64,000 nucleotides of DNA from a virus: positions 32,001 to 96,000 of the IMG/VR virus record IMGVR_UViG_3300044729_002678, one strand, 5' to 3'. This document shows positions 32,840 to 46,126 of this stretch, piece after piece (position 1 is the stretch's first letter; each line of letters begins with the position of its first letter). The notes under the pieces are model-generated. The model saw nothing but the letters and a program-made list of their open reading frames with translations, had not been told where the DNA came from and did not search any database. Both the position numbers and the translations under genes were made by a program.

Positions 32840-34324
32840 TTATTTCAACTTTTTAATTTCTTCTTTTAGTTCTTTTATTTCATCTAAAAGATGTTTAATT
32901 ACTGCTGCATGATATGGTATCATACTTACATAACTAACACCAAATTCATAACCTTCTTTTGATATGTTACCCTCTTCGTCTGTATGTTCTTTAATTAATG
33001 GGTTTTCTGCTATTGTAATTAAATGGTCAAATCCATTTTTCATAACATCTTGCGCAATAACCCCTACATCGTATTTACCAGTTATTGTATCTAAATTATC
33101 ACTACTTTCAGGTCTTTTCCAATTAAATGAAACAGGTTTTACATTTTCTATCAACCTTAATGCGGTTTCAATATCTATACCTTTAATATTTTCTTTTAAC
33201 CTAACATCCGATGTTGAGGATATTCCAGATGAACCAAGAGACCTAATTTCTTGCGCAGTAACAGCACCATCGGTAAATATACCCGTATTTATTACATTAT
33301 ATGGGTTAGATATTTGTTCAGGACTAATCATTACCCCCGACATAGAATTATCAGGATGTCTAATTGATGTGTAATAAGATGTATTTCCCGTTTTGGGTGG
33401 TGGGTGTCTCAATGTACCATAATTAGTAGTACCTGGAGTTGGATTATATACTTTTACAGCAATTGGTGGGGATGCGCCTCTAGATGATAGATTAAATAAA
33501 TCTTGAAACCCAATATACACAATTCCAGCTTTATTTTGGTCTCTTAACGCATCAGTATTATTTCTAAGATTTGCAGCGGTTTCGGTTGTTCTAGTAATTC
33601 TAACAGGCCCATAGAAATCGGAAATATTATTATTTGTTGGTTTTATTTCTACCAAATTTCTTAATGTGTTTGGAGTTCCATGTGGACCGAAAAAACCATT
33701 TCCAATTATTGTCGCAAACGCCAACGATGAACCAGTATTAAGAGTTCCCTTTACATGCTGACCATGACCCTCCGCAATTGTATAAGTTCCTTCTGCATGG
33801 GAATAATCACCATTTGCTTTTGTAGAAAATCCTTCAGCATGGGAATAATCACCATTTGCTAGTGTACTCAATCCTTCAGCATGGGAATAATCACCATTTG
33901 CTGTTGTAGAAATTCCTTCTGCATGGGAAGCCGTACCATTTGCATTAGTATATTGACCTTCTGCATGGGAATAATCACCATTCGCCGCATTTTGAAAACC
34001 ATTAGAAAGAGTGCCTAAAATTTGCAATGTTGCTGTTGGTAGTACTGCACCCGTTCCTATTCCGATTCTACTTCCACTTTCATAAATTGAAGAGGTTGTA
34101 ATAGTAGTGTTTCCACTCCAACGGGTTATATAATTTTGAGTTCCACTTCCACCAATAACACTACCACCGCTTACTAGCGATGATGCTGAAAAGTAGGTGA
34201 ATATGCCTGATTGTGAATTATAACCAACAATATTTGCTTGTGCGGTATTTGGTAAACCACTTGCGGTTATGTTTAATACGTGTATTGCACTACCTGATTG
34301 TAGTATCTTTTTCCATGATGGCAT
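32840..34324 (-). CDS. Fibre protein with YadA-like head repeats and a C-terminal S74 intramolecular chaperone
   Basis: ANGDYSHAEG repeats; SDVRLKENI...V.F.WK...GVIAQDV...V.Y followed by a coiled coil. Confidence 0.85.
   Translation of the reverse strand: MPSWKKILQSGSAIHVLNITASGLPNTAQANIVGYNSQSGIFTYFSASSLVSGGSVIGGSGTQNYITRWSGNTTITTSSIYESGSRIGIGTGAVLPTATLQILGTLSNGFQNAANGDYSHAEGQYTNANGTASHAEGISTTANGDYSHAEGLSTLANGDYSHAEGFSTKANGDYSHAEGTYTIAEGHGQHVKGTLNTGSSLAFATIIGNGFFGPHGTPNTLRNLVEIKPTNNNISDFYGPVRITRTTETAANLRNNTDALRDQNKAGIVYIGFQDLFNLSSRGASPPIAVKVYNPTPGTTNYGTLRHPPPKTGNTSYYTSIRHPDNSMSGVMISPEQISNPYNVINTGIFTDGAVTAQEIRSLGSSGISSTSDVRLKENIKGIDIETALRLIENVKPVSFNWKRPESSDNLDTITGKYDVGVIAQDVMKNGFDHLITIAENPLIKEHTDEEGNISKEGYEFGVSYVSMIPYHAAVIKHLLDEIKELKEEIKKLK
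33790..33985 (-). repeat. 42-bp tandem repeat (ANGDYSHAEGxSTx), about 5 copies
   Basis: gcatgggaataatcaccatt recurring every 42 bp. Confidence 0.9.
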
Positions 34325-34436
34325 ACTTCACTCACTAATTTATAACACATTATGGTTGGATACACATACTAAGTGAGTAGTATATGGGCCCACTTCCTTA
34401 TTCAGGCCAATAATATGTTTTGGTTATACTCTATTA
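34325..34436 (-). ncRNA. Structured 5' leader RNA (three-way junction plus possible RBS pseudoknot)
   Basis: Stems found by eye between the late motif TACTTATA (34437-34444) and the ATG at 34324. Confidence 0.6.
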
Positions 34437-34477
34437 TATAAGTATGGAAAAATATTTTATTATTGTTTATTTCCCCA

Positions 34478-36280
34478 CTATGAGTATATCCAAATATCGC
34501 CATTATTTTGGATATGCATATTACCAAATCCAAAAGAAGCGCTACCAAAAGTTGGTGCATTTGAATCGGATGGGGCGGCTGATGATGCGGAAACCGTTAC
34601 CATAAAATCGGTTGGAGTTACATTCATTGAACCTGTTGGTACACCCAATGCTACACCCCATCTATTTGCTAAACCATTTGCTGCACCACTACCGCTATTG
34701 AATACGAAAGCAGAACCACTACCATTTGCTCCTTCAATAATTATACCACCTTCGGATGAGGGTGTTAAAGAACCTGAACTTCTTCCTAAAACGATAAACT
34801 TATCTTCTATTGATATGTTTGATGTGTTTATTACCGTTGTATCACCGTTTACAGTTAAATCACCAGTAACAGTTAAATTATTTCGAACAGTAGTTGTACC
34901 GGTTGTAGCACCTATGGCGACTGTAGTCGCTACCCCACCAATGTTTAGGGTAGTAGCGTTTGTATTAAATATAGTAGTAGTTCCAGTTGATGTTGTTGTT
35001 ATATCACCACCATTTACTGCTAAATCCCCACCAATGGAAATATTACCACTTGCGGTTATATGTGTAAATGAGGGGGAATCTGCAAAGTCAAATGTTAATG
35101 TATCGGGTGTAGTAGCAGCACTAATCGTTATGTTTACATCGGATGATGAAATGATTAAAGTATCTGCCGAAGAATCTGCTTGCGCTGTACCAGTCGAACC
35201 ACCCAAGCCACCAACATTAATAGTTGCAAACGAATTAATACCCGTTATACTACCCGATGGTAATGTTGCTACTTTAACGAGCTCACCACCAGAACCAACT
35301 AAAGCTATATTATAGCCTGCATTGTCCGTCACCAATGGCAATCCCGATGCGGTTAGGGTTGATGTGGCTAAATTGGTAAATGTTGGAGAGTCTTTAAATG
35401 AAAAGGTTATAGTATCAATACCAGCTGAACCTGATATTAACAAGTTATTGTTTGTGTTGGAAATCCCAGCAAATGAGCCTGATGCAATACTCAAATTACC
35501 TGTTGCAGTATCTGCTATAACGGCTACACCACCAACGCTCATTGTTGCATAAGCATTTGTTCCCGCCACACTTTGTATAGAAGCGCTTAAAGCCGCAATT
35601 GTTGCTGCAGCATAATCACCAATGTATAAGTATGCATCAACATGGGTTGGTATTGTTGAAGCGCCTGCTGCAAATTGTGTTGGGTCTTGTATCCACAAAA
35701 TACCCGCAGAACAATCAACTACCCAGTCGGATTGGTCTGTGGGTTCTATTAAAATACTTCCTGAATATAATCTAGGTGTATAATTCTCGCCAAAAGCAGG
35801 TGGAACAATTTGTAATCCAAATCCACTACCAGTTAAATGATAATTATTTACATATGGAGCAGTTCCTTTTTTGGGGTTGGATGAATTACTAACACTTTCA
35901 TAACTACCTGTTAATCTAAGTGCATAAGTGTGATTTGTAGATGATATATTAATTTCACCTTGTTGTTCAATTGTTGTTCCTACTAAATCAGCTGGTGCTG
36001 TATATGGATAGTTACCACTACCAACTGCAGTCAACTGAAATCTTACATATTCTAATACAGGCTTACCACCCAATGATTGGGAATAAAGTGTATAAATGGT
36101 TGGAGCGGTTGTTGGTATTTGTGAATTTATTGGTAATTGATCAGCAAATATACTCTGTCCCCCCAATTGAACAGTTGATGAAATGATTTCATTTGGGGTT
36201 GGATTTAGTGGGGTGGTATGTGCTTTACCATCCAATCGTTTACTAACAATATCTAATTTATTAAGCTGAGTTACTGCCAT
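34478..36280 (-). CDS. Fibre / structural protein, paralogue of 38644-40665
   Basis: Shared GDLTVNGDTT...IEDKFI and RWG...PTD...FGN.HI....IW.Y segments. Confidence 0.7.
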   Translation of the reverse strand: MAVTQLNKLDIVSKRLDGKAHTTPLNPTPNEIISSTVQLGGQSIFADQLPINSQIPTTAPTIYTLYSQSLGGKPVLEYVRFQLTAVGSGNYPYTAPADLVGTTIEQQGEINISSTNHTYALRLTGSYESVSNSSNPKKGTAPYVNNYHLTGSGFGLQIVPPAFGENYTPRLYSGSILIEPTDQSDWVVDCSAGILWIQDPTQFAAGASTIPTHVDAYLYIGDYAAATIAALSASIQSVAGTNAYATMSVGGVAVIADTATGNLSIASGSFAGISNTNNNLLISGSAGIDTITFSFKDSPTFTNLATSTLTASGLPLVTDNAGYNIALVGSGGELVKVATLPSGSITGINSFATINVGGLGGSTGTAQADSSADTLIISSSDVNITISAATTPDTLTFDFADSPSFTHITASGNISIGGDLAVNGGDITTTSTGTTTIFNTNATTLNIGGVATTVAIGATTGTTTVRNNLTVTGDLTVNGDTTVINTSNISIEDKFIVLGRSSGSLTPSSEGGIIIEGANGSGSAFVFNSGSGAANGLANRWGVALGVPTGSMNVTPTDFMVTVSASSAAPSDSNAPTFGSASFGFGNMHIQNNGDIWIYS

Positions 36281-36335: not shown

Positions 36336-38345
36336 TTATGCTACTGTTATTTGTGTTATTCTCCCCGTCCAACCAGTTGTTGCGGTAATTCTAACTAACC
36401 AATTGGTATCCGAAGATGGTAGGCCAGGCCAGCTTTGATTTCTCATATTAATTGTTTTTGCTGTACCACTATTAATAGCAGCACCATCACCACAACCAAC
36501 ATTGTCATCAAATTGTGTATAAGATGTAGGAGCAGCCACTAACAAATCACGATATCCAGTACTCTCTGGTATTTTAATATGTATGTAGGCGTTTTGGCTT
36601 GCTAATGCGGTAGTATTAGCTACAAATCCTGAAGTCATACCAGTCCATGAAATTGTTATATTTTTTTGAGAATTACTACCATCAGATGCATTATGCAAAA
36701 ACCTTCTATACAAATATTTAGTTCCGCTCAATGCACTATAGTCTGGAACAGTACCTGCTTTATATACCGCGCCACTCATATTACCAACAACCGATGGATA
36801 AACTAACGCATTGTCAAAAAATGCCAATTCGCTTGTGAGTGTACCCAATGATGTGGTTGCATTATACACAGCAGTAGTTAAAGATGCTTGGGTATCATAG
36901 GAAGCGGATGGGACTCTGTGGCTTTCAGTTGTGAAATACTCAATTTTAGTAGTTGGTATCGATGTATTTGTATGTATGATAATTGTTGGTGTACTTATTG
37001 TTTGTGGTCCAGTTGTTTTTCCTTGAACACCAAGTGCTGTATAAGTTACTGATATTGGGTTGTTTAATGCCCTCGCATTCGTCCCAAATGTAAATGAAGA
37101 AGTTGCTTGTAAATTTGAATTGAAATTAGTAGGTGCGGGTGGTGTATATGATGTAACAGAACCCGATGTTCCTGTGGATGAAAATGTTATAGCGGTTGAA
37201 TTATAACTACAACTATAAAAACCAGGAACACTACCACTTGCAATAAAAGTAAGAGCAGTACGATACGGAATCCCCGAAATCCATTTAAGACCTGTTGGAT
37301 TAAATGAATGTGTTGAATTTGTTGGTGCTGAAAATGATGTACCTGCTTGTGCTGGATCAAAAACCCAATCTGCGTAATTTGTCATTTTCATAGAAGATGA
37401 TTGTATTACTTTTACATAATTCCATCCTCTTTGAAAAAATGATGATGTTATTGTTAAAGTACCGGTTCTATGCCTTCTATACACAAATGATAATCCCGTA
37501 TCTTTAAATGATCCGGTTTGTGCAGCAGATAAACTAAAATTATTAGCATCTGAAAAAGCGGATGTTCCTGTTGTAGTTACTTTAAATTGCTGATTGTTTA
37601 TTTCAACAATATAACTCTCACCACCATCCGCAGGAACACTAAAAGCATCCGCTGGATAGTTTGTAAACGAAGCCGAATCAGGAGTAGTACTTTCGTTTAT
37701 ATCAAATGTTAGGGAACGTGATGCTGTAAAAATACCGAGTCTATAATAAGTACTGCTTGGCGATGTTGTATTTGTAACAGCTATAAAAGATTCCCCATTG
37801 TTTACCGCAGTACTCATCGGAGCTACACTGCCAGTTCCACTTGAGCTGATGTACCCTGTCGCAACAACACCACTACCAAACGATAATCTTGTGTTTGAAG
37901 TTGTATTAGCGCTTGTTGCTAATCCTTCAAGATTTCTAACATCAGGTGCTGAAGATGGGGCTAATCCATTTAACACCTCATTAAACCTATCAATCGCAGT
38001 ACCAATTGGTGTTGTTTGTGCGGAAAAATCAGTAAAAAGACCATCGCTATAATCACTATCTTCAGCAGAACCAATTGTTATATTTCCACCAACTACAGTA
38101 TGATTTGAGGCGGTTGTGAGTGTGGTAATACCATTCCACACAGCTAGTTTGTTTGCTTCACCACCAGTACCAGCATATGTTACTGCATTTGCGGTTGCAA
38201 TTGATGATGTATCGAATTTAGTAATATTACCCGAGCCATCTATACCAAGTACTTGAGCTTGACCGGCCGTTGGTAAATTACTCGCGGTTATGTTAGTAAA
38301 ACTTCCGTCGCTACCTGATATTAATATTCGTTTCCATTCTGCCAT
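36336..38345 (-). CDS. Virion structural protein (MxxWK..SGS family)
   Basis: 669 aa, Ser/Thr-rich; EDSDYSDGLF.DF...TPIGTAIDRFNEVL. Confidence 0.65.
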   Translation of the reverse strand: MAEWKRILISGSDGSFTNITASNLPTAGQAQVLGIDGSGNITKFDTSSIATANAVTYAGTGGEANKLAVWNGITTLTTASNHTVVGGNITIGSAEDSDYSDGLFTDFSAQTTPIGTAIDRFNEVLNGLAPSSAPDVRNLEGLATSANTTSNTRLSFGSGVVATGYISSSGTGSVAPMSTAVNNGESFIAVTNTTSPSSTYYRLGIFTASRSLTFDINESTTPDSASFTNYPADAFSVPADGGESYIVEINNQQFKVTTTGTSAFSDANNFSLSAAQTGSFKDTGLSFVYRRHRTGTLTITSSFFQRGWNYVKVIQSSSMKMTNYADWVFDPAQAGTSFSAPTNSTHSFNPTGLKWISGIPYRTALTFIASGSVPGFYSCSYNSTAITFSSTGTSGSVTSYTPPAPTNFNSNLQATSSFTFGTNARALNNPISVTYTALGVQGKTTGPQTISTPTIIIHTNTSIPTTKIEYFTTESHRVPSASYDTQASLTTAVYNATTSLGTLTSELAFFDNALVYPSVVGNMSGAVYKAGTVPDYSALSGTKYLYRRFLHNASDGSNSQKNITISWTGMTSGFVANTTALASQNAYIHIKIPESTGYRDLLVAAPTSYTQFDDNVGCGDGAAINSGTAKTINMRNQSWPGLPSSDTNWLVRITATTGWTGRITQITVA

Positions 38346-38379: not shown

Positions 38380-38625
38380 TTATTTATCTTTTTTTGTTTT
38401 TTTTCCGCTCAATACAATAAATTGAGATTGTAATTTTATAATTGTATTATAGACCAATTCAACATCAGAAACTTTAAATGTTGAATCCTTTATTGCGCTT
38501 AACAAAAAGGTAATCTCTTCCAACCCCAAATCATTTTCATTTGATGTTTGTTGTTTTGTTTCCACTACAACTTCTTCTTGTTGTGGTTGAACACTCTTTG
38601 TTCTTAATTTATCTAAAATTGACAT
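38380..38625 (-). CDS. Small hypothetical protein
   Basis: 81 aa with AAGGAG SD. Confidence 0.7.
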   Translation of the reverse strand: MSILDKLRTKSVQPQQEEVVVETKQQTSNENDLGLEEITFLLSAIKDSTFKVSDVELVYNTIIKLQSQFIVLSGKKTKKDK

Positions 38626-45868: not shown

Positions 45869-46126
45869 TTATTCTGCTTTACTTTTCAGATATTGTTTTC
45901 TAATGGCCAATTCCATTTTTTTTCTTTTTTCTATTGATTTTGGTACGAATTCAGTTCTTTCTTTCAAAACATCCATCATTCCGCTATCTTTAACCATTTT
46001 TTTGAAAAGTCTTAATGCTGCTTCAACATTATTGTCTACCACTTTAACTGCCATTCCCCTACCAGGAACATACATTAACTCTCTTCTAATTTTTTTCTTT
46101 TTTGGTCTTTCTTCGTTTTCGTTCAT
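45869..46126 (-). CDS. rpsU: Phage-encoded 30S ribosomal protein bS21
   Basis: V.V...NVE.ALR.FKK.V...G.....K.R..F...S..KR.K...A pattern. Confidence 0.85.
   Translation of the reverse strand: MNENEERPKKKKIRRELMYVPGRGMAVKVVDNNVEAALRLFKKMVKDSGMMDVLKERTEFVPKSIEKRKKMELAIRKQYLKSKAE

Follow-up and report, generated by a model that had tools for sequence, protein, structure and literature searches.

The leader of a tail-fibre gene in the viral DNA analysed here contains a structured RNA that belongs to a new, widespread and uncatalogued family of phage leader RNAs, hereafter named the WKK-fibre leader, an assignment about which we have practically no doubt. The window, i.e. the whole stretch of 64,000 nucleotides (nt) under analysis, comprises bases 32001–96000 of the 161.6-kb IMG/VR virus record IMGVR_UViG_3300044729_002678; its G+C content is about 34% and the minus strand carries all its genes. 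The element is located in a 153-nt gap, with an open reading frame (ORF) of 600 amino acids (aa) upstream (34478–36280) and the 494-aa fibre gene downstream (32840–34324). An earlier note on this DNA, made from the letters alone, had described in this gap a structured leader RNA that could not be assigned to a known family. Both statements held: the RNA is conserved and covaries in at least 120 phage contigs, upstream of genes of the MPxWKK type, and Rfam 15 gives no match to it. When positions 33800–35000 were searched against Rfam 15 with cmscan (E ≤ 10), only a chance match to a small RNA was obtained, on the opposite strand, and no matches were obtained with eight diverse members of the family and controls at E ≤ 1. 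Literature searches found no description of the motif.

The whole three-way junction (P1-P2-P3), which forms the core of the family, spans positions 34344–34419 of the minus strand. The 5' arm of P1, AACAUAUUA(U)UGG (34407–34419), has a 1-nt bulge beside an invariant GG and pairs with the 3' arm CCAUAAUGUGUU (34344–34355), which in most members occupies the Shine-Dalgarno (SD) position relative to the AUG. P2 is the hairpin CCU-GAAUA-AGG (34396–34406) and is followed by the linker AAG (J2/3, 34393–34395). P3 (34357–34392) consists of the base UGGG/UCCA (34392–34389 paired with 34360–34357), a 2x2 internal loop (CC / UA) and the upper hairpin CAUAUACUA-CUCACU-UAGUAUGUG, in which 34386–34378 pairs with 34371–34363 and the loop CUCACU occupies 34377–34372. 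A single A (J3/1, 34356) closes the junction. P1, P2, the AAG linker, P3 and the junction A are all found as the earlier note had drawn them, and the minimum free energy (MFE) fold agrees. The leader fold is well past chance expectation. The MFE structure of 34340–34425 (ViennaRNA) was this same three-way junction, with -23.4 kcal/mol and z = -2.85, and 3 of 200 shuffled sequences folded as well. The wider 166-nt region was unexceptional (z = -1.34). The closing pair of P1 is marginal (probability of 0.33–0.69 in single-sequence folding), and a P1 predicted to be this weak suits a fold that is stabilised by another factor.

Downstream of the junction, an SD-like AGUGAGU box (34330–34336, minus strand) ends 5 nt upstream of the fibre ATG (34324–34322). 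The heptanucleotide ACUCACU (34372–34378), i.e. the loop CUCACU of P3 plus its closing A, is the complement of this box, which is the proposed partner of the P3 loop. The position of AGUGAGU ahead of an S74 fibre gene had been given exactly by the earlier note. The fibre protein (gene at 32840–34324, minus strand) starts with MPSWKK (N-terminus MPSWKKILQSGS), matches tail-fibre PHROGs and ends in an S74 intramolecular chaperone domain (PF13884, E = 1.3e-13).

The close relatives of the element were fetched via the fibre protein. They have the same intergenic block, with a 55-nt core that is identical except for one loop base, and at the six positions of the outer P1 in which the window differs from them pairing is kept throughout, with two compensatory and two one-sided changes. 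A covariance model (R1) was built from five close-relative sequences and matched the 100 nt just upstream of the start codon in about 20 far more distant loci, which had been gathered solely by the N-terminal motif of the fibre. In order to avoid this protein bias, IMG/VR was scanned with a structure-blind nucleotide pattern of the core alone, and at least 120 stretches were recovered; the scan yielded at least 130 distinct elements on at least 120 contigs. The AAG linker and the single junction A were fixed in the search patterns; the linker is also kept in the four pattern-independent members shown, and the A in those pattern-independent members that were inspected.

An ATGCC... start encoding MPxW(K/R)(K/R) comes after 123 of the 130 listed elements, at a distance of up to 140 nt (up to 33 nt in 121 of the 123); the others comprise two with a minor variation of the fibre start, two evident chance matches in GC-rich DNA and three with insertions. 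About 125 of the 130 lie directly upstream of a fibre gene of the MP(N/S)WKK type. A second covariance model (R2) was applied to 100 loci (about 1 Mb) and to five genomes of 97–167 kb, the 161.6-kb record of the window included; exactly one match per locus and one match per genome were obtained. The window element was matched at 34322–34432 by R1 with 121 bits (E = 5e-24) and by R2 with 73.4 bits (E = 2e-19). A search by blastn with other family members identified a copy in the cultured Flavobacterium phage vB_FspM_immuto_2-6A (MW353175, 137877–137970; hereafter phage immuto), upstream of immuto26A_219, a 'putative tail fiber-like protein'; its genome is also one of the five. The host of this phage is Flavobacterium sp. 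LMO8, from the Baltic Sea. A total of 185,579 bacterial and archaeal genomes was also scanned, and among the first 120 matches listed there was one true instance, the rest being almost all chance matches in GC-rich genomes; therefore, the element looks phage-borne. The true instance (L260) lies on a 15-kb contig binned as a Pelagibacter metagenome-assembled genome, and this contig is probably phage. Most members of the family infect, or look like infecting, Bacteroidota.

The members of the family are three-way junctions of 50–80 nt built on a nearly invariant core, N-GG-CC[P2]GG-AAG-URGG-C[P3]G-UWW-CYA-A-CC, and the covariation seen in the alignments argues that all three helices are real. 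In 124 distinct listed members, aligned by the core, pairs 1–5 of P1 were 91–100% paired, with 3–7 standard pair types each, and family-wide the values for pairs 1–6 were 73–100% and 3–7 pair types. Removing or doubling the P1 bulge in the register reduced the pairing to 1–30% at most positions. The two C-G pairs at the base of P2 are invariant and covariation starts at the third pair; most other members have a GNRA or UNCG loop on P2. At the second pair of the P3 base (positions 43/76), 89 members have G-C and 35 have A-U, i.e. 100% paired with zero exceptions, and the upper stem of P3, which varies in sequence and in length (7–26 nt) across the family, also covaries. In a model-based alignment of 100 members, 89% of the cells were paired versus 35–48% in slid registers, 16 out of 22 pairs showed changes on both sides, and the covariation score was 0.372 versus 0.145 in shuffles, none of 500 shuffles reaching the former value. 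The junction-adjacent pair G27-C79, otherwise invariant, is A-U in the copy of phage immuto. The invariant parts of the helices are the GG/CC that closes P1, the CC/GG at the base of P2, the U-A and G-C of the P3 base and the C-G that opens the upper stem; the invariant unpaired parts are the AAG linker, one G, the UWW bulge and the single A. Nucleotides so strictly kept in a junction would imply a specific ligand or partner.

The position of the RNA is also constrained. In most members a TATTTAT box is present 18–25 nt upstream of the core, and in many relatives this box comes directly after a clear intrinsic terminator of the upstream gene; therefore, the RNA probably lies at the extreme 5' end of its transcription unit. 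The earlier note had placed the RNA after a late motif. A promoter-like box is indeed found upstream of P1 (34433–34446, minus strand), in the form of a degenerate copy, CATACTTATATAAT, of the TATTTATA box carried by the close relatives at the same site; it aligns to their ATATATTTATAC, and its function is putative. Scans for terminators and sigma-70 promoters near the element gave nothing over background. The TATTTATA box itself is present in 18 copies on the coding strand of the window, 13 of them in short intergenic gaps just upstream of genes (e.g. 5541, 53163, 62475, 60111 and 56610; minus strand). Three of the boxes end 3–5 nt short of an ATG (e.g. TATTTATACTTATG), which suggests leaderless or near-leaderless mRNAs.

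On the downstream side, the distance between the core and the AUG is 12–24 nt in 115 of the 121 listed members and 12–33 nt overall, and this constraint places the 3' arm of P1 at the SD position. The earlier note had proposed that the element controls fibre synthesis at the level of translation, and its position, behind a promoter-like box and with the P1 3' arm and the AUG so placed, argues for such control. Behind the promoter box of the fibre paralogues that lack the RNA, mostly of the MAxWKK type, there is just a plain A-rich leader, which indicates that the RNA is an addition to one fibre gene per genome. In two loci the precise start site that the leader serves has been taken by an inserted homing-endonuclease gene, which begins 15–16 nt past the core and separates the RNA from the fibre gene. 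One of these genes (L141:10525-11247, minus strand) is of the NUMOD1 homing-endonuclease-like type and its product has a GIY-YIG-like N-terminus (a match under the Pfam cut-off), and the other (L075:1553-1795, minus strand) is a small HNH gene whose ORF starts with the fibre's own MPN. From these insertions, the leader evidently serves whichever ORF is placed behind it.

The loops that face the initiation region divide the 121 listed IMG/VR members into four classes. Class C (65 distinct members) has loops of 3–5 nt on P2 and P3 without a complement in the initiation region, and a median distance of 16 nt between the core and the AUG. Class A (28 members; median distance of 21 nt) has a conserved P3 loop, ACGGCAUAA, in which GGCAU(A) faces (U)AUGCC. 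Class B (22 members; median of 17 nt) has an extended P2 with the loop UGGCA, the complement of the UGCCA in AUG-CCA. Class W, that of the window (six members in IMG/VR plus 16 in metagenomes; median of 31 nt), carries the P3 loop CUCACU facing AGUGAGU. Matches of at least 5 nt between a loop and the initiation region were nearly all found in classes A, B and W: P3 GGCAU(A)/(U)AUGCC in 27 members, P2 UGGCA/UGCCA in 14 and P3 ACUCACU/AGUGAGU in six. The two clades in which the P3 loop is the complementary one have the longer linkers (21 and 31 nt), and class B is near class C in this respect. A U just before the AUG is present in 24 of the 28 members of class A versus 37 of the 65 of class C.

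In class B the SD sequence AAGGAG lies half within the 3' arm of P1. A small upstream ORF has its stop codon 4–10 nt before the core GG, a position at or inside the 5' arm of P1, and no promoter separates this stop codon from the RNA. The class B loci (e.g. L076, L082, L159 and L260) have strong AAGGAG sites and lack the TATTTAT box. Phages of this class may come from hosts outside Bacteroidota; one of them is on the contig binned as Pelagibacter.

Class W has no canonical SD sequence and its linker, of 29–33 nt, is unusually long. In linker shuffles that preserve composition, the 7-nt complement between loop and box seen in the window arose by chance in 0.7% of cases, and the duplex has a calculated energy of -10.3 kcal/mol. 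A metagenome scan for variants of the class W loop retrieved 20 loci, all with the CUCACU loop and the AGUGAGU box; the box is invariant in class W while its flanks and its spacing to the AUG (2–7 nt) vary. One metagenome copy of class W (L317:4326-4403), placed at the end of a contig, has the junction intact and other sequence, without AGUGAGU, after P1, and may be a recombinant. It would appear that three lineages, using two different hairpins, have each gained a conserved loop able to mask their own initiation region, and this is the best support for the pairing of a loop with the ribosome-binding site put forward in the earlier note. That proposal stands in part. Both partners are invariant within the clade of the window and two other clades have start-region loops of their own, but the pairing is not family-wide and the upper hairpin of P3 varies. 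For class W, a pseudoknot between the loop and the ribosome-binding site is plausible from these sequences, with a likelihood that we place a little short of even.

Concerning function, the reading that we favour, with about an even chance of being right, is that the element, at the 5' end of the fibre mRNA, would gate translation initiation in cis. The junction would fold at or near this end, and the initiation region would be held in or against the fold, so that binding of the 30S subunit is gated. The marginal, AU-rich 3' arm of P1 would occupy the SD position and, in class W, pairing of the P3 loop CUCACU with AGUGAGU would draw the initiation site into a pseudoknot. For release or stabilisation a trans factor would be responsible, either the ribosome itself or a protein encoded by phage or host; in class B, the ribosome that terminates on the small upstream ORF would open the junction. 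As an outcome, the amount or timing of one fibre would be set separately from those of its RNA-less paralogues.

Several observations weigh against this gate. In class C, which comprises 65 of the 121 listed members, the loops of only 3–5 nt have no complement in the start region and the predicted nested folds leave the AUG region about 60% unpaired, which indicates that occlusion by pairing is not the general mechanism. A purely steric gate would, in addition, need no invariant junction nucleotides. In class W the loop and the box are both invariant and the pairing is thus without covariation support, AGUGAGU could be merely a weak SD sequence, and the 6-nt loop pairs over 7 nt only if two closing A-U pairs open. 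In some members of class A the stretch that leads from the RNA to the AUG contains a sequence, TAAATTTG, that may be a Bacteroidota -7 box; if active, this box would yield transcripts without the RNA. Finally, the small protein encoded upstream of the element in most members also precedes RNA-less fibres and is not a candidate for a specific partner.

The invariance of the junction bears directly on the first of the alternatives, a metabolite-sensing riboswitch, in which the junction would be a pocket for a small molecule and the ligand would stabilise the weak P1, alter access to the start site and tie fibre synthesis to host physiology. The size of 50–80 nt is that of an aptamer, the stems around the invariant junction are variable and capped by GNRA or UNCG loops, and the marginal AU-rich P1 (closing-pair probability of 0.33–0.69) abuts the initiation region. 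Glutamine riboswitches, moreover, occur in marine phages. The layout and the string GGAAGU(A/G)GG are like those of the glutamine-I riboswitch (PMC5393176). However, the P1 pairs and the E-loop by which glutamine-I contacts its ligand are absent, no Rfam model scores the window element even at E = 10, and a structural fibre gene is all that the element is associated with, none of the listed members having a gene of metabolism or transport downstream. We consider a riboswitch unlikely. A broader version, in which the junction would be a sensor, either a riboswitch or one of the state of the ribosome or of bS21, that tunes one receptor-binding fibre against its RNA-less paralogues during infection, is also doubtful. 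If it were true, the state of the host would tune the host-range equipment of the progeny, in Bacteroidota and in other aquatic hosts.

The 5'-terminal location could also serve a stabiliser or processing element, which would shield the long mRNA of the fibre against 5'-end-dependent decay, or set a processing site, and have no direct role in initiation. Stem-loops at the 5' end stabilise mRNAs such as ompA and the SP82 leader. The fold starts a few nt past the promoter-like box and is probably 5'-terminal, and the downstream fibre genes reach more than 2500 aa. Such a function requires a stable 5' helix rather than about 20 invariant junction nucleotides, and P1 is weak; in class B the RNA is internal, right after the upstream stop codon and with no promoter between; and neither the tight spacing to the AUG nor the complements of the start region in the loops would be explained. 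This makes a stabiliser rather improbable.

The same tight distance could be expected from an enhancer of ribosome docking for hosts that do not use SD sequences, in which P1, 6–10 nt before the AUG, would dock on the platform of the Bacteroidota 30S subunit at the position of the SD/anti-SD helix. Initiation in Bacteroidota does not rely on SD pairing. The cultured host is a Flavobacterium, the promoter-like boxes are Bacteroidota-like, the geometry from P1 to the AUG is conserved and the homing-endonuclease ORFs are placed for translation from the site. Furthermore, a homologue of ribosomal protein bS21 (PF01165) is encoded by four of the five large RNA-bearing genomes, which points to manipulation of initiation by the phage; the window is among them, with its gene at 45869-46126 (minus strand; 42.5 bits). 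Phage immuto, however, has the RNA and no bS21. In class B a strong AAGGAG lies inside P1, P1 and SD pairing being mutually exclusive, and in classes A, B and W the effect of the loops would be to hide the start region, not to expose it. We regard docking as quite improbable.

A processive antitermination RNA (put-like or EAR-like), acting in cis on RNA polymerase so that the long fibre operon is completed, is very improbable. The location of the element, right behind a promoter-like box and in front of long genes, and its single copy per genome would fit; but the distance to the AUG is constrained, the loops complement the start region, class B has no promoter before the RNA, the Rfam put and EAR models show no likeness to it and no terminators were seen inside the fibre gene of the window. 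Least probable of all is a new class of small self-cleaving ribozyme trimming the leader, which shares with hammerhead and twister a small phage-carried three-way junction with an invariant centre and variable stems, since a cleavage site has no obvious reason to stay near the AUG and no Rfam ribozyme model matches; the hammerhead itself was rejected, as the junction strands are of 0 nt, AAG and A and the CUGANGA/GAAA core is absent.

A gate of the kind that we favour calls for a trans factor, and the small protein mentioned above was considered as the RNA's specific partner. In 116 of 125 listed members (e.g. L021:1103-1348 and L191:2709-2930), the gene directly preceding the RNA encodes a small helical protein (47–104 aa, one family), and many members have two tandem paralogous copies of this gene. 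The AlphaFold model is a two-helix hairpin, with a predicted local distance difference test score (pLDDT) above 90 over approximately residues 33–70. The protein could be placed in no Pfam or PHROG family, and its fold had no significant match in the PDB. The proposal was rejected, because paralogues also precede RNA-less WKK-type fibres; the small protein thus tracks the fibre family and not the RNA, and may be a fibre-associated assembly or adaptor protein.

In the window, the member of this family (81 aa; 38380–38625, minus strand) is separated from the RNA by two inserted genes, an RNA-less MAEWKR fibre gene (36336–38345) and the gene of 600 aa. What is left of the small gene's 3' end, the 12-nt remnant GGGGAAAUAAAC (34465–34476, minus strand), sits just upstream of the promoter box, and in L021, L023 and L025 the same block contains the stop codon of the small protein. 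This remnant marks a recombination junction and shows that the small gene was once the direct neighbour of the RNA and its fibre gene, before the two genes were inserted; promoter, RNA and fibre 5' end appear to travel together as a single block. The 600-aa ORF (34478–36280) had no family match and, used as a probe, its protein had no relatives in IMG/VR. The N-terminus of the window fibre gave no tblastn match in GenBank phages. No constraint at RNA level was detected inside the fibre ORF, where synonymous sites are free past codon 6.

Several loci depart from the usual arrangement. In L084 and L163 about 118 nt separate the RNA from the ATG, as a result of a conserved insert of about 100 nt with hairpin-like stretches of its own, and L184 has no fibre start within 1.4 kb after the RNA. 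In L010/L018 the ORF behind the RNA ends after 212 aa, and in L002:3001-5159 the similarity to residues 80–490 of the window fibre is spread over 2159 nt; for this fibre, the sequences point to a split gene, an insertion or an intron-like element.

Tail fibres determine host range. To our knowledge, structured cis-regulatory RNAs specific to phages are rare and none is known for tail-fibre genes. The WKK-fibre leader is an abundant new RNA family (at least 120 contigs), with comparative support for each helix and absent from Rfam, and it has a cultured and tractable representative in phage immuto, which grows on Flavobacterium sp. LMO8. It raises the question of how one fibre among several paralogues is controlled, and which signal lies behind this control. 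It may also reveal how structured leaders work when translation is independent of SD sequences, in phages many of which carry their own bS21.

Among known RNAs, the glutamine-I riboswitch (glnA RNA, RF01739), for which the crystallised sequence and a description of the structure are available (PMC5393176, PMC6698751), is the closest in architecture. Both are three-way junctions of about 60 nt with the same order P1-P2-P3, in which a short P2, often capped by GNRA and of the form CC...GG, is followed by GGAAGU(A/G)GG and then by P3, and both are found near start codons in aquatic bacteria and phages. In glutamine-I, P1 has a conserved CGUUC/GAACG, whose C-G and G-C pairs contact glutamine (PMC6698751), whereas P1 of the WKK-fibre leader is variable and AU-rich and only the GG/CC next to the junction is conserved. 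The 3' strand of the leader is UWWCYAACC, where the E-loop of glutamine-I has GAAG (GAAGUA opposite UGAAG), and URG/CYA is a covarying Watson-Crick helix instead of a loop-E motif. The downstream gene encodes a fibre and not a protein of nitrogen metabolism. Membership of glutamine-I was therefore rejected, since P1, loop E and gene context differ and the Rfam model remains silent up to E = 10.

As regards function, class B resembles translational coupling as found in the MS2 coat/replicase pair and in ribosomal-protein operons, in that a terminating ribosome would melt P1 and free the SD sequence. In the clade of the window and in most others, however, the genes are separated by a terminator and/or a promoter box, which indicates that coupling is not the general mechanism. 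The pyrimidine-rich CUCACU of class W facing a purine-rich, SD-like box, and the SD sequence of class B lying partly in P1, are like SD-sequestering platforms and RNA thermometers; unlike in those, the sequestering part is a peripheral, clade-specific add-on that half of the family lacks. Phage translational operators (the T4 gene 32 pseudoknot, RegA, gp43 and the MS2 coat hairpin) set the amount of a protein, are short hairpins or pseudoknots with a known binding protein and are confined to narrow phage groups. The WKK-fibre leader shares with them a structure at the initiation region of a phage gene, and the pseudoknot proposed between its loop and the ribosome-binding site is comparable to that of the T4 gene 32 leader, but it differs in being a three-way junction with an invariant core that is spread over many phage lineages. 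In function, the WKK-fibre leader comes nearest to these operators and to leaders that sequester the SD sequence, from which its invariant junction sets it apart.

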